DNA of 64,000 nucleotides from an uncultured bacterium (GCA_964387845.1 CAYLXA010000002.1:192001-256000); one strand, 5' to 3'. Positions 13,950 to 17,890 are shown, counted from the first letter of the stretch. Made by a program: numbers and translations. Notes: generated by a model not told the origin, from the letters alone.

Positions 13950-15659
13950 TTAACCTTCTGACGTTACGCGCAAAACTTCTTCCAAAGTAGTGCTTCCGCG
14001 AATAAAGGATTGTAGTGCGTTTTCAAACAAAGTTTTCATGCCTTTTTTTCGTGCAAGCACTTCAATTTCGTCGCTCGATTTTCTCTCAATAACCATTTGC
14101 TGAAACTCTTCATCCATCACAAAAATTTCCATAGTCGCGATTCTGCCTTTATATCCTGTTTGATTGCAAAAAGAACAACCTCTTCCATGATAAGGCGTGA
14201 CCCCTTTAAATTGCTTGGGGTCAATTTGAAATTGCGTAAAAACACTTTCCGGTATTTCGTAAGGCTCTTTACACTTCTCGCAAGTCTTACGCAAAAGCCG
14301 CTGCGCTGTTGCTGCCACCAATGAAGATGCGATTAAAAAAGGTTCGATGCCCATATCGGTCAAACGGGTGATGGCGGTGCAAGCCGTGTTGGTGTGCAGC
14401 GTGCTAAAAAGCAAGTGCCCTGTCAGCGCCGCCTTAACAGCGATATCAGCCGTTTCCGAATCGCGGATCTCTCCCACTAAAATGACGTCCGGGCTTTGAC
14501 GAAGCAACGACCGCAAGCCGCCCGCAAATGTAAGTCCGATGTCGGGATTGACTTGGGTTTGTGTGATGCCCTCGACCTGGTATTCGACAGGGTCTTCGAT
14601 TGTCATGATGTTGCGGTCTTTTGTGTTGATTTGATTTAATATCGAATACAGAGTTGTTGATTTCCCGCTCCCCGTCGGACCGGTCACTAAGACCATTCCG
14701 TACGGCCGCTTGATGATATCTTGAAACGTCTGGACGTTTTCTTCCAAGAAACCAAGCTGGGTCAAGCCGACCTGCAAACTGCGCTTATCCAAAATCCGGA
14801 GCACCGCCTTTTCGCCGTGGTATGTAGGCAGCAGTGAAACGCGGAAATCGATTTCACGCTCCTCGAACTTTGCCTTAAATCTGCCGTCTTGCGGCAGTCT
14901 TTTTTCTGTAATGTCGAGATCTGAAACTATTTTTAACCTGGCCAAAAGAGAAGCATACATTTGCCGCGGCGGCGAAAATGCTTCTTTCAGAACACCATCG
15001 ATTCTGTACCGGATTCGAAATTGCCGCTCATAGGGTTCAAAATGAATATCGCTCGCTCGCCGTTTAATAGCTTCCTGTAAAATCAAATTAACCATACGGA
15101 TGACCGGGGCCTCCTCGGCCATTTTCGGCATCGCGTTCTCTTCCGTTTGCTCCCTATCACGAACAACTTCGATAGAATCAACATCAATGTCTTCGTCTTG
15201 GAATAGATCCTCGATGTGGGCTGTATCCGAATAGTAAGTATCAAAAGCAGCTGATATATCTTTTTGCGTTGCGATAACGGGACGAACAATACAGCCTGTG
15301 ATTTCCTTTAAGTCGTCAACTGCGAATACGTTGGTGGGATCAGCCATGGCAACCGTTAACATGTTTGCAATTTTAGAAACTGGAATTAATTTGTGTCTAT
15401 CAGCAATCCGCTTAGGTACCAATTTAATAACTGCCGGCGATACTTTGATCAATGAAAGGTTTAAGATCGGAATATTGGATGCTTCGCTGACATAGCCTGC
15501 AATATCTTTTTCGCTAACGTAACCGTCTTCAACCAGAATTGCCGAAAAACTTTTGCCGCTTATTTTTCGCGCCTCAAGAACCCTTTTCATTTCTTGCTCA
15601 GAAATAATCTTACGCTCCCTCAAGATATCGAGAAGCCGGTTATGCCCCACGGATGTCAT
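13950..15659 (-). CDS. pilB: Type IV pilus assembly ATPase PilB (GspE family, with N-terminal GspE_N domain and tetracysteine zinc site)
   Basis: Walker A GPTGSGKST, Asp/His boxes, and a CEKC...CSFC tetracysteine motif characteristic of PilB/GspE; ~570 aa, with the N-terminal domain present. Confidence 0.8.
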   Translation of the reverse strand: MTSVGHNRLLDILRERKIISEQEMKRVLEARKISGKSFSAILVEDGYVSEKDIAGYVSEASNIPILNLSLIKVSPAVIKLVPKRIADRHKLIPVSKIANMLTVAMADPTNVFAVDDLKEITGCIVRPVIATQKDISAAFDTYYSDTAHIEDLFQDEDIDVDSIEVVRDREQTEENAMPKMAEEAPVIRMVNLILQEAIKRRASDIHFEPYERQFRIRYRIDGVLKEAFSPPRQMYASLLARLKIVSDLDITEKRLPQDGRFKAKFEEREIDFRVSLLPTYHGEKAVLRILDKRSLQVGLTQLGFLEENVQTFQDIIKRPYGMVLVTGPTGSGKSTTLYSILNQINTKDRNIMTIEDPVEYQVEGITQTQVNPDIGLTFAGGLRSLLRQSPDVILVGEIRDSETADIAVKAALTGHLLFSTLHTNTACTAITRLTDMGIEPFLIASSLVAATAQRLLRKTCEKCKEPYEIPESVFTQFQIDPKQFKGVTPYHGRGCSFCNQTGYKGRIATMEIFVMDEEFQQMVIERKSSDEIEVLARKKGMKTLFENALQSFIRGSTTLEEVLRVTSEG

Positions 15660-17404
15660 GCACTCACCAAATCGCTTTCCAGATCTTGATCGCCGGTCGT
15701 TACCCGGTAAATTTCATCAACTGCAGTCTCTCCTTCTACCACTTTCCCGACGGCGCATTCGCGCAAAGTCCGCATCCCAAATTTACGGGCAGCCTGCTTC
15801 AATTCATCGCCCGTCACCCGCTTAATAATTAATTCCTTAATTTCGGGCCGTAAGGTCAAAATTTCCGTGATCACCGTACGGCCAAAATAGCCTGTGCCGC
15901 GGCACTTGGGGCAACCTTGGGGATGGTAAAAAGTATATTTTTTCTTTGGATCTAGTTTCAACTTCTCGAGAATACTATCCTCCGGATGATAGGGCGATCG
16001 GCAGGCCATGCAAATCCGCCGGATTAAGCGTTGTGCGGAAATCATCAAAATGGAGGATGAAATTAAAAATGGCTCGATTCCCATATTGACAATTCTGACG
16101 ATTGAACTGCATGCATCGTTGGTGTGCAAAGTCGTTAGCACCAAATGGCCGGTTAGAGCTGCTTTAATAGCGATATCCATCGTGTCGGTATCGCGGATTT
16201 CGCCGATCAAAATAATGTCCGGGTCTTGCCTCAAAATTGAACGCAGAGCAGACGGAAATGTGAGCCCTATGTTCTCTTTGACATTCACTTGATTAATCCC
16301 GTCGACTTGATATTCAACAGGGTCTTCGACAGTCGTGATGTTTTTTTCGGGTGAATCAATGTACTTTAAAATGGAATAGAGCGTGGTTGTTTTTCCGCTT
16401 CCGGTCGGACCGGTAACTAAAAGCATTCCGTGCGGTTTTGTGGCGGAGCGCTTCAAGTCATCTAATTCACGGTCCGTGAACCCGAGCCGCTCAATGCTCT
16501 GTGACTGCGCTTTTTTATCCAAAATACGCAAACAGACCTTTTCGCCAAATGATGACGGCAAAATAGAGACACGGACGTCGACTTCCCTGTCTTGAACTTT
16601 GATTTTAAAGCGTCCGTCTTGAGGAATCCGGCGCTCGGCAATATTCAACTGGCTCATCACCTTGAAGCGCGATACCAGAGCAAGGCCCATCGCTTTCGGC
16701 GGCGCCTTGCCTTCTTCTAAAATGCCGTCCACGCGAAAGCGGATGCGGATATGATTTTCCCACGGTTCAATAAACAAATCGCTTGCTTTTCGCTTGATCG
16801 CATCCAGCAGCATCAGATTTGCGACTTTGATGACAGGAGTTTCCTGAGCCTGCCGCATCAAATCGAGATCGGCTTGGTCGCCTTCTTCTTTTGAATCCTG
16901 GACGATCCGAATCAGCTCCTCGATGGTCTCTTCTTTTGCGGGGACCTGAGGGCCTTCATCCTTTTTATCTTTCGGATAGTAGTAATCAATTGCTTTTTGC
17001 AAATCTGTAAATGGGGCAATAACGGCTTTCACGCGCAAATTGGTGCGTGCCCGTAAATCATCCAGCAGCATCACATCGGTGGGATTCCGCATCGCGATCG
17101 TCAGGACATCATCGTGTTTCGACACCGGCAACACGCCCAACTTTCGTGCGAGCTGAGCCGGGATAACACGCAAAACGTCATTATCGATTTTAAAATCACC
17201 TAAGTGAATCGGAACAAATCCGAACTCTCCGCTTAAGAATAAAACCAAATCACGATCGCTGATGAACTGCCGGCTCACCAAAATTTCACTCATTGATTTA
17301 CCGGTACTGTGAGCTTCATCAACCACGATTGCCTTTGCAGAAGCTGTAATCTTCTTCTGCTTCACCATTTTATCCAATAGGGCTTCGTTGACGATGTCGT
17401 ACAT
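15656..17404 (-). CDS. Second GspE/PilB-family secretion ATPase paralog (full length, with N-terminal domain and tetracysteine motif; not PilT-like)
   Basis: GPTGSGKTTT Walker A and CMAC...CPKC tetracysteine; 582 aa. Its start overlaps the pilB stop by 4 nt. No PilT-type short ATPase is in the window. Confidence 0.75.
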   Translation of the reverse strand: MYDIVNEALLDKMVKQKKITASAKAIVVDEAHSTGKSMSEILVSRQFISDRDLVLFLSGEFGFVPIHLGDFKIDNDVLRVIPAQLARKLGVLPVSKHDDVLTIAMRNPTDVMLLDDLRARTNLRVKAVIAPFTDLQKAIDYYYPKDKKDEGPQVPAKEETIEELIRIVQDSKEEGDQADLDLMRQAQETPVIKVANLMLLDAIKRKASDLFIEPWENHIRIRFRVDGILEEGKAPPKAMGLALVSRFKVMSQLNIAERRIPQDGRFKIKVQDREVDVRVSILPSSFGEKVCLRILDKKAQSQSIERLGFTDRELDDLKRSATKPHGMLLVTGPTGSGKTTTLYSILKYIDSPEKNITTVEDPVEYQVDGINQVNVKENIGLTFPSALRSILRQDPDIILIGEIRDTDTMDIAIKAALTGHLVLTTLHTNDACSSIVRIVNMGIEPFLISSSILMISAQRLIRRICMACRSPYHPEDSILEKLKLDPKKKYTFYHPQGCPKCRGTGYFGRTVITEILTLRPEIKELIIKRVTGDELKQAARKFGMRTLRECAVGKVVEGETAVDEIYRVTTGDQDLESDLVSA

Positions 17405-17449
17405 GTTTTCTAAATTTTCAGGTTTAAATTTGCAATGCCATGTTGTCCA

Positions 17450-17890
17450 TTAGGATTTATTGCCGGGATTATGGAAAAATTTTTCTATGGTGTTGGAAAT
17501 TTCGCTTGCCGTTGATACAAACGCCTGCACCTTGCAGTTTGTCACCTTTGCAATTTCGGCGATAGCTTGATCGTCCGACGGATCAGCCATGGCAATCGTC
17601 AGAACATTGCCCGCTTTATCCAATGGAACAAATGAGTGTTTACGGGCCAGGTCGGCATTAACAAGCTGAAAAACGTCAGGGTTGATTGAAAAGTGATCAA
17701 GGGGCAAATAAGCATAATTGAACTGTGTTGCCAGCGCGACAACGATGTCTTCTTCGGTCACAATCCCCATCTCAATAAGAATCTGACCGATCCGCTTATC
17801 CTTTTCGTCTTTTTGTTTGGTAAGCGCTTTTTGCAGCTGTGCCGCATCGATCGTGCCGTGCTCAATCAAGATTTCTCCAAGCCGTCTCAT
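17450..17890 (-). CDS. Standalone GspE N-terminal (MshEN-type) domain protein; candidate cyclic-di-GMP receptor
   Basis: The first ~55 aa contain two tandem copies of the 24-residue MshEN cyclic-di-GMP-binding motif RLGxxLhxxGhhxxxxLxxALxxQ: RLGEILIEHGTIDAAQLQKALTKQ and RIGQILIEMGIVTEEDIVVALATQ, separated by a 6-aa spacer. The rest resembles a GspE_N domain. There is no ATPase domain. Confidence 0.6.
   Translation of the reverse strand: MRRLGEILIEHGTIDAAQLQKALTKQKDEKDKRIGQILIEMGIVTEEDIVVALATQFNYAYLPLDHFSINPDVFQLVNADLARKHSFVPLDKAGNVLTIAMADPSDDQAIAEIAKVTNCKVQAFVSTASEISNTIEKFFHNPGNKS

Follow-up and report, generated by a model that had tools for sequence, protein, structure and literature searches.

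MshEN is one of the few widespread receptor domains for cyclic di-GMP (c-di-GMP) and, to our knowledge, has been studied almost wholly as a cis-regulatory part of the enzyme under its control. The DNA analyzed here is a 64-kb stretch from an uncultured bacterium (GCA_964387845.1, CAYLXA010000002.1:192001-256000), referred to at its full length as the window, in which a 146-amino-acid (aa) protein of the MshEN type is encoded directly ahead of two PilB/GspE-family ATPases, designated PilB1 and PilB2, where a complete set of type IVa pilus genes begins on the minus strand. The protein is a complete MshEN domain with a canonical c-di-GMP site, for which binding is predicted from the sequence. It is probably a free-standing MshEN-type c-di-GMP receptor that is coexpressed with, and acts on, the type IVa motor encoded downstream, and we infer that it binds c-di-GMP and acts in trans.

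In some of the described systems closest to this locus, the receptor domain and the motor are a single chain. The domain, motif, and c-di-GMP ligand of MshEN are established (Wang et al. 2016; PMC5013675), and isolated MshEN and GSPII domains are reported there and elsewhere to bind c-di-GMP alone (PMC5013675, PMC11731258). Vibrio cholerae MshE (5HTL), Geobacter PilB (5ZFR/5TSG), and Myxococcus xanthus PilB resemble the 146-aa protein in fold and in tandem half-sites, but the N-domains of MshE and of motif-bearing PilBs are joined covalently to their own ATPase, whereas the window domain is a separate polypeptide; unlike MshE and Geobacter PilB, the ATPases adjacent to it also have degenerate MshEN copies of their own. 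Thermus thermophilus PilF (6F8L, 8PDK; PMC11731258), with three consecutive GSPII/MshEN domains, likewise has more than one MshEN per motor and likewise mixes degenerate copies with binding-competent ones (predicted, in the window); its isolated GSPII-B domain, in which motif position 1 is Lys or Leu, has an affinity of 6 nM for c-di-GMP (PMC11731258). All copies of PilF are in cis, whereas the predicted competent copy in the window is a gene of its own, and the several-MshEN-plus-ATPase chain of the PilF type was found neither in the window nor in any of 80 related loci, in all of which the sensor is an open reading frame (ORF) separate from PilB. Architectures of the form (MshEN)2-4-T2SSE are listed in Supplementary Table 4 of Wang et al. 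2016 (PMC5013675). By analogy, the free MshEN protein seems better compared with the distal GSPII domain of Thermus PilF, here produced as a polypeptide of its own.

Two further systems are comparable in part. In Xanthomonas and Pseudomonas, whose PilB is without the motif, FimX senses c-di-GMP in trans and reaches the PilB N-domain by way of PilZ (PMC8389850). The FimX-PilZ-PilB complex (7LKM; PMC8389850) is similar to the present locus in that the PilB N-domain has lost its c-di-GMP residues and, like operons of sister clades, involves a degenerate GGDEF domain, but the receptor in that complex is an EAL domain that is itself degenerate and is linked through a nonbinding PilZ adaptor, whereas the candidate receptor in the window is MshEN itself. 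A simple motif regular expression, the only search made for them (no genome-wide PilZ/EAL profile search was run), found no PilZ/FimX homolog in the window. ATPase-less, too, are Pseudomonas aeruginosa PA3740 (MshEN plus a diverged T2SSE_N1) and Cyanothece cce_1044 ((MshEN_N)2), which Wang et al. 2016 (PMC5013675) describe as proposed or shown to bind c-di-GMP, with PA3740 linked to swarming motility. The available text and supplement of that paper mention neither a “stand-alone” MshEN nor a conserved pairing of these two proteins with a PilB operon, and the window protein differs from PA3740, as described there, in its canonical rather than diverged ND1 and its fixed operon position.

An earlier note, made from the sequence alone, had described a 146-aa protein as an MshEN-type domain only, next to two GspE-family ATPases of 570 to 580 aa. 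Three ORFs of 146, 582, and 569 aa are indeed found on the minus strand at the positions listed in Table 1, and profile searches bear out the MshEN-type domain. Pfam MshEN (PF05157) matches residues 57 to 142 of the 146-aa protein with 74.6 bits (cutoff, 23.1), and NCBIfam NF053729 (c-di-GMP_motif), a curated 53-residue model of the c-di-GMP site, matches residues 3 to 56 with 64.7 bits (cutoff, 38; E value, 4.7e-18). Both of the tandem 24-residue motifs that had been proposed are present, as half-sites R3-Q26 (RLGEILIEHGTIDAAQLQKALTKQ) and R33-Q56 (RIGQILIEMGIVTEEDIVVALATQ), but they occupy residues 3 to 56 rather than the first 55, and their spacer is 6 residues (KDEKDK) rather than the 5 of MshE; spacer length also differs in Geobacter PilB and PilF. 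Scored against the consensus (R/K/L)LGxx(LVI)(LVI)xxG(LVI)(LVI)xxxxLxxxLxxQ for two tandem 24-residue motifs with a short spacer, the protein agrees at 21 of the 22 key positions, and none of the eight R/G/G/Q positions is missing, with both Gly3, both Gly10, and both Gln24 residues present and Thr13, in place of a hydrophobic residue, as the lone deviation.

Asp103 of the protein aligns with D266, the ND1 aspartate of PilF GSPII-B that touches guanine (PMC11731258). An AlphaFold2 model built on 92 homologs (predicted local distance difference test score, 89.3) begins with four helices, after which comes an alpha/beta subdomain in which helices flank a three-stranded sheet. Among solved structures, its top Foldseek match is c-di-GMP-bound V. 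cholerae MshEN (5HTL; template modeling scores, 0.82/0.86; root mean square deviation, 2.1 Å), followed by the Xanthomonas PilB N-domain, the Thermus PilF GSPII domains, and XpsE-N. Profile scores above the cutoffs, tandem motifs, and an ND0+ND1 fold are together those of an MshEN domain.

A protein search with the 146-aa sequence returned 137 relatives at E values of ≤1e-5; the 120 matches listed are 146 to 191 aa long, and the named ones mostly carry the label Omnitrophica/Omnitrophota. At least 414 species genomes (one genome scanned per species) encode a relative, and these genomes are mostly labeled Omnitrophota, a phylum represented here solely by metagenome-assembled genomes. Locus comparisons rest on the 80 related loci, out of these at least 414 genomes, and motif counts on 80 or 81 orthologs. 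The closest available ortholog is 79% identical and has the same synteny, and against it the gene shows 0.121 nonsynonymous (pN) versus 0.704 synonymous (pS) differences per site, with synonymous sites saturated. The gene is genuine and evolves under purifying selection. The best similarity of the protein is to the N-terminal 140 residues of full-length PilBs, such as Geobacter PilB, which could be taken to mean that the gene is a truncated pseudogene remnant of a third ATPase, an outcome that the earlier note had envisaged. The probability of this is close to nil: the domain is complete and has its own ribosome-binding site and stop codon, orthologs of 145 to 219 aa occur across the same genomes, pN is far below pS, the sensor is more conserved than the PilB N-domains, and no ATPase-coding remains lie 3' of the gene, where PilB1 begins 45 nt on in another frame. 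Conservation and selection data refute the pseudogene reading.

Ten columns are invariant in 81 orthologs (G5, L8, G35, E46, L53, Q56, L62, P63, F124, and V125), half of them ligand-site residues, and all 81 pass NF053729 at E values of ≤1e-9. Gly3, which in MshE reads the edge of guanine through its backbone amide, is present in 80/80 orthologs in both motifs; Gly10 is found in 73/80 (motif 1) and 67/80 (motif 2), and Gln24 is found in 78/80 and 80/80, respectively. Motif position 1 is Gln, Lys, or Arg (motif 1) and Leu (motif 2) in most orthologs and Arg in both motifs in the subclade of the window. Leu or Lys at this position is compatible with the 6 nM binding of PilF GSPII-B (PMC11731258), from which the extended position 1 consensus (R/K/L) was set; this consensus includes Leu and Lys but not Gln. 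The 146-aa protein is nearer to the motif-bearing PilB N-domain of another phylum (Geobacter; 38% identity, 98.6 bits) than to the two N-domains of its own operon (30% identity, 78 and 69 bits), and the mean pairwise distance among sensors is 0.44, versus 0.58 for PilB1 and 0.57 for PilB2 N-domains. The free MshEN protein looks like the copy that retained the ancestral, constrained function.

PilB1 and PilB2 are 44% identical. Walker A, the Asp box, Walker B, the His box, and the CxxC...CxxC tetracysteine (Zn) site are intact in both, in agreement with the earlier description of two PilB-type ATPases with tetracysteine sites, and the catalytic and tetracysteine motifs are kept in 69 PilB1 and 59 PilB2 orthologs. 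Both score below the equivalog cutoffs for PilB (TIGR02538; cutoff, 675.65; PilB2, 665.4 bits; PilB1, 625.0 bits) and GspE (cutoff, 630.25; PilB2, 611.1; PilB1, 591.1); they are members of the PilB/GspE family that are not assignable as equivalogs. Each carries a full ND0+ND1 N-domain. The proposal that c-di-GMP sensing had been separated from the ATPases is therefore imprecise: with this domain kept in both PilBs, the free protein represents one more copy of MshEN.

The ligand site of these N-domains has decayed. NF053729 does not match the PilB1 N-domain, which has none of the eight R/G/G/Q positions, and gives the PilB2 N-domain 35.9 bits (cutoff, 38), with two of the eight, a score and count by which PilB2 holds a recognizable, degenerate relic of the motif. 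The claim that the ATPases lack the motif is thus correct for the window, where both fall under the cutoff, but has to be qualified for the PilB2 relic and because loss is a matter of degree across the phylum. In place of Gly3, PilB1 orthologs have T/I/V/L/K in motif 1 and S/Q in motif 2, and PilB2 orthologs have I/S/A and R/A/I, respectively. The changes listed for nonbinding XpsE include G11V and G40L (PMC5013675), and one degenerate half-site suffices to abolish binding in PilF GSPII-A (PMC11731258). Many PilB1 N-domains of the phylum pass NF053729 despite missing motif glycines; because the model scores so many glycine-less N-domains, “motif lost” is a position-specific statement and not one at the level of the hidden Markov model, and site loss was judged from position-specific counts, NF053729 being unfit as a binary test.

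Most motif positions belong to the hydrophobic core and are largely retained in the PilB N-domains too (15 to 16 of the 22 key positions). This, and the continued recognition of many degenerate N-domains by NF053729, would suit a ligand-independent structural subunit or assembly factor of the PilB1/PilB2 motor, with motif residues kept mainly for the four-helix-bundle fold. Such a role is improbable, since Gly3, Gly10, and Gln24, which contact the ligand in both halves, are near-invariant only in the free protein and since an intact HD-GYP enzyme is encoded in orthologous operons.

Tandem intact PilB paralogs are kept in at least 58 loci and are a more solid and more unusual feature than the missing PilT that had been emphasized. 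A third T2SSE/PilT-type ATPase was not detected by phmmer in the 64-kb window, the rest of the genome lying outside the search, but in 20/80 related loci PilT (pilT_fam, TIGR01420; 471 to 489 bits; cutoff, 319.1) lies immediately upstream of the same sensor gene. In 46/59 PilB2 orthologs, Gln (TGQ) stands in place of the first His of the His box (TGH), a position that is His in 68/69 PilB1 orthologs, and this contrast is possibly a functional difference between the two; PilB2 of the window retains this residue (His415, 14421-14423). In one related locus (L037:7321-10842), a single 1,173-aa ORF is an apparent PilB1-PilB2 fusion, either genuine or an assembly/frameshift artifact.

Where contigs are long enough, the order MshEN (145 to 219 aa)-PilB1-PilB2-PilC is essentially invariant in the 80 loci. 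The first ATPase is an ortholog of the 582-aa protein in 57/68 loci and the second is an ortholog of the 569-aa protein in 58/58, and the sensor-PilB1 junction is mostly −4 to +20 nt. In the window, the sensor gene runs from an ATG to a TAA located 45 nt before the PilB1 start, with PilB1 in another frame, and the PilB1 and PilB2 genes share 4 nt where the first stops and the second starts. The flanking regulators (PilS/PilR, HD-GYP, GGDEF-like, and PilT) differ by clade, while the MshEN-PilB1-PilB2 core is constant. A REC-HD-GYP protein (~356 aa; Pfam HD_5, 111 to 126 bits; HD...GYP intact) is encoded between PilB2 and PilC in 23/80 loci, and the presence of this enzyme in orthologous operons is direct genomic evidence that ties the operon to c-di-GMP. 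The clade of the window has no REC-HD-GYP at this place and has PilS/PilR instead, with CinA-LigT upstream and PilS-PilR-pilin downstream of the MshEN-PilB core. A HAMP-GAF-GGDEF-family gene (~470 aa) abuts the sensor in 35 loci and precedes PilT in 8 more; its product is weaker evidence of a c-di-GMP link than HD-GYP. In five loci, PilB2 and PilC are separated by a second free MshEN gene, and those in L039 and L044 score 54.5 and 46 bits with NF053729 (cutoff, 38).

ATPase-less MshEN proteins are common. Among the top 148 representatives in a global protein set, 122 have no ATPase domain, and MshEN-only proteins have one (47), two (46), three (15), or four to six (8) domains; motif integrity in the fused (MshEN)n representatives is uninformative, as the match list is biased to intact motifs. 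The window protein might likewise be a general c-di-GMP receptor or buffer with an output other than the pilus motor (e.g., PilS/PilR or an HD-GYP regulator), its operon position reflecting coregulation only, and one short locus (L074), in which MshEN is followed directly by HD-GYP, fits this explanation. It is very unlikely, however, given that the gene adjoins PilB1 in essentially every informative locus, across a junction that is very short or overlapping, and given the fixed MshEN-PilB1-PilB2 core among clade-variable regulators and the covariation of the sensor with the PilB1 N-domain.

This covariation is seen in pairwise-distance matrices from the 50 loci with all genes, in which the sensor and the PilB1 N-domain correlate with an r of 0.93, above the r of 0.85 between the PilB1 N-domain and its own ATPase core. 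Once the signal held in common with both ATPase cores and PilC is removed, the sensor retains a partial r of 0.80 with the PilB1 N-domain and of 0.20 with the PilB2 N-domain, and in a Mantel test on the residuals, 0/2,000 permutations reached the value observed for the PilB1 N-domain. At the level of sequence divergence, these values are suggestive of a specific sensor-PilB1 partnership. A decoy or antiactivator would act elsewhere, competing with PilB1 and PilB2 for the PilM/PilC platform in a c-di-GMP-dependent manner and thereby gating motor docking. Its premise is that the free protein has the ND1 surface by which GspE/PilB N-domains hold GspL/PilM. In keeping with this, ND1 is conserved as strongly as ND0 (Y61-L62-P, P89, L97-T98, M101, P104, C119, and F124-V125-T127), Foldseek weakly retrieves the ND1-only complexes EpsE:EpsL (2BH1) and GspE:GspL (4PHT) (E values, 0.6 to 1.2), and the PilM, PilO, and PilQ genes are in the same cluster. 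Decoy action is nevertheless unlikely, as the covariation is specific to the PilB1 N-domain and not to the operon overall, PilM being outside the comparison.

If the free protein is a receptor acting on the motor, it would bind one c-di-GMP between its two 24-residue half-sites, like MshE and PilF GSPII-B, and binding would reorient its ND0 against ND1, as described for GSPII-B (PMC11731258). Reorientation would alter the affinity of the sensor for the motor, and the loaded sensor would dock there, most likely on the degenerate N-domain of PilB1. Sensor and PilB1 would then form in two polypeptides the multi-MshEN N-terminal stack that PilF and clostridial (MshEN)2-T2SSE proteins have in one chain, and the c-di-GMP level would set whether, or which, assembly ATPase drives the pilus, licensing or biasing assembly. 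The observed parts of this scheme are a complete MshEN under selection, its fixed place before two catalytically intact PilBs with glycine-less half-sites, and c-di-GMP-type enzymes in orthologous operons.

Several observations weigh against a c-di-GMP receptor acting in trans. The 64-kb window leaves c-di-GMP metabolism in its organism unproven: regular expression and phmmer searches found no diguanylate cyclase, phosphodiesterase, or PilZ in it, and Rfam gave only two tRNAs and no c-di-GMP riboswitch. The active site of the operon GGDEF proteins is degenerate (GDNEF, GDDEF, GDNDF, and others) in 37/40, with the canonical motif only in L049, L068, and L071, and none of them has an RxxD I-site, so that this protein is not a demonstrated source of the ligand and may serve in sensing or as a scaffold instead of as a cyclase. 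The ligand of the sensor might differ from c-di-GMP, because MshEN can also bind cyclic GMP-AMP (PMC5013675). The PilB ATPases may themselves bind c-di-GMP in cis, since NF053729 at E values of ≤1e-9 still recognizes 54/67 PilB1 N-domains, as well as 30/59 PilB2 N-domains. The distance-matrix correlation could, moreover, arise without contact, from a recombination block that neighboring genes share or from shifts in rate within particular clades.

A wider reading, which we regard as rather doubtful, joins these elements into an Omnitrophota pilus motor consisting of a free MshEN sensor, PilB1 with its coevolving degenerate N-domain, and a second full PilB-type ATPase. Under it, the degenerate-GGDEF sensor and HD-GYP protein in the operons of many lineages would constitute a self-contained local second-messenger circuit, and the MshEN sensor would pick which assembly-type ATPase engages the platform. 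In lineages without an adjacent pilT, such as that of the window, PilB2 may then supply an opposing (retraction-like or alternative-filament) activity.

The gene order of the cluster is MshEN, PilB1, PilB2, PilC, PilS-like, PilR-like, pilin, tetratricopeptide repeat (TPR) protein, PilM, ORF, PilO, and PilQ (Table 1). PilC scores 411 to 427 bits with the NCBIfam PilC models, under their cutoffs. Promoter and terminator scans of the window were at chance level except for the hairpin 3' of the pilin gene, which resembles a strong terminator or an attenuator separating the pilin gene from the TPR protein gene, although its tail is not T rich; the TPR protein gene comes after the pilin gene in relatives too. 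Upstream of the sensor gene are the housekeeping genes for LigT and CinA (Pfam). In the closest relative (L081/L082) the LigT-like gene is absent and CinA is followed directly by MshEN, so the 5' boundary of the operon is variable. Elsewhere in the window, a 1,582-aa ORF (42698-47446, minus strand) with no Pfam match at E values of ≤1e-5 lies among genes for threonyl- and phenylalanyl-tRNA synthetases and other housekeeping functions, and a resistance-nodulation-division efflux operon (57558-63518, minus strand), unconnected to the MshEN finding, encodes an outer-membrane factor, an HlyD-type adaptor with a heavy-metal-binding domain, and an AcrB-family pump.

Table 1. Features of the pilus gene cluster (64-kb window coordinates) and examples from related loci (L numbers, locus coordinates)
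Feature	Position	Strand	Basis or remark
Stand-alone MshEN, 146 aa	17450..17890	-	ND0 four-helix bundle + ND1 alpha/beta subdomain
Shine-Dalgarno-like GGAGGGG	17892..17898	-	Just 5' of the ATG of the 146-aa gene; direct sequence reading
PilB1, PilB/GspE-family ATPase, 582 aa	15656..17404	-	Pfam T2SSE, 454 bits; MshEN, 66 bits
PilB2, PilB/GspE-family ATPase, 569 aa	13950..15659	-	Pfam T2SSE, 478 bits; MshEN, 76 bits
PilC/GspF platform protein, 408 aa	12702..13928	-	Pfam T2SSF, 225 bits
PilS-like sensor histidine kinase	11444..12685	-	Pfam 6TM_PilS, HisKA, HATPase_c
PilR-like sigma-54-dependent response regulator	10077..11447	-	Pfam Response_reg, Sigma54_activat, HTH_8
Type IV pilin	9418..9885	-	Pfam N_methyl
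Hairpin, 13-bp stem, directly 3' of pilin gene	9350-9383	-	Promoter/terminator scan
596-aa protein, hydrophobic N-terminal part, C-terminal TPR repeats	7547..9337	-	Translation; Pfam TPR families
PilM	6307-7401	-	Pfam PilM_2, 181.8 bits
200-aa ORF in PilN position, no family given	5708-6310	-	Position in cluster
PilO	5072-5698	-	Pfam PilO, 43.8 bits
PilQ secretin	3074-4699	-	Pfam Secretin, Secretin_N, STN
LigT-like 2'-5' RNA ligase, between CinA and MshEN gene	17991-18551	-	Pfam
REC-HD-GYP	L022:8178-9245, L012:13941-15014, L065:13987-15054		Plus 20 further loci
HAMP-GAF-GGDEF	L068:1589-3007, L071:2101-3513, L049:1484-2773		
~470-aa ORFs directly upstream of MshEN gene	e.g., L017, L021, L022, L033		
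PilT	L008:8803-9933, L013:5428-6501, L071:3695-4756		Order PilT-MshEN-PilB1-PilB2-PilC
Second free MshEN gene	L039:13323-13763, L044:13869-14351, also L052, L056, L060		

The literature searched on Omnitrophota with PilB, type IV pili, or c-di-GMP yielded no description of an MshEN-PilB1-PilB2 operon. What is new is the phylum-wide occurrence of a separate MshEN gene before tandem PilBs with degenerate sites, often with HD-GYP and a degenerate GGDEF protein. Transmission of the ligand signal from the N-domain to PilB hexamers is called poorly understood in a review of PilB (PMC11656802). If the reading of the free protein as a receptor for the motor is true, the operon would be a natural “split” version of MshEN regulation, and its three soluble proteins would be a tractable system for that signaling step. 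Tandem PilB paralogs, both of them catalytically intact, also stand out as a hallmark of the Omnitrophota pilus machinery.

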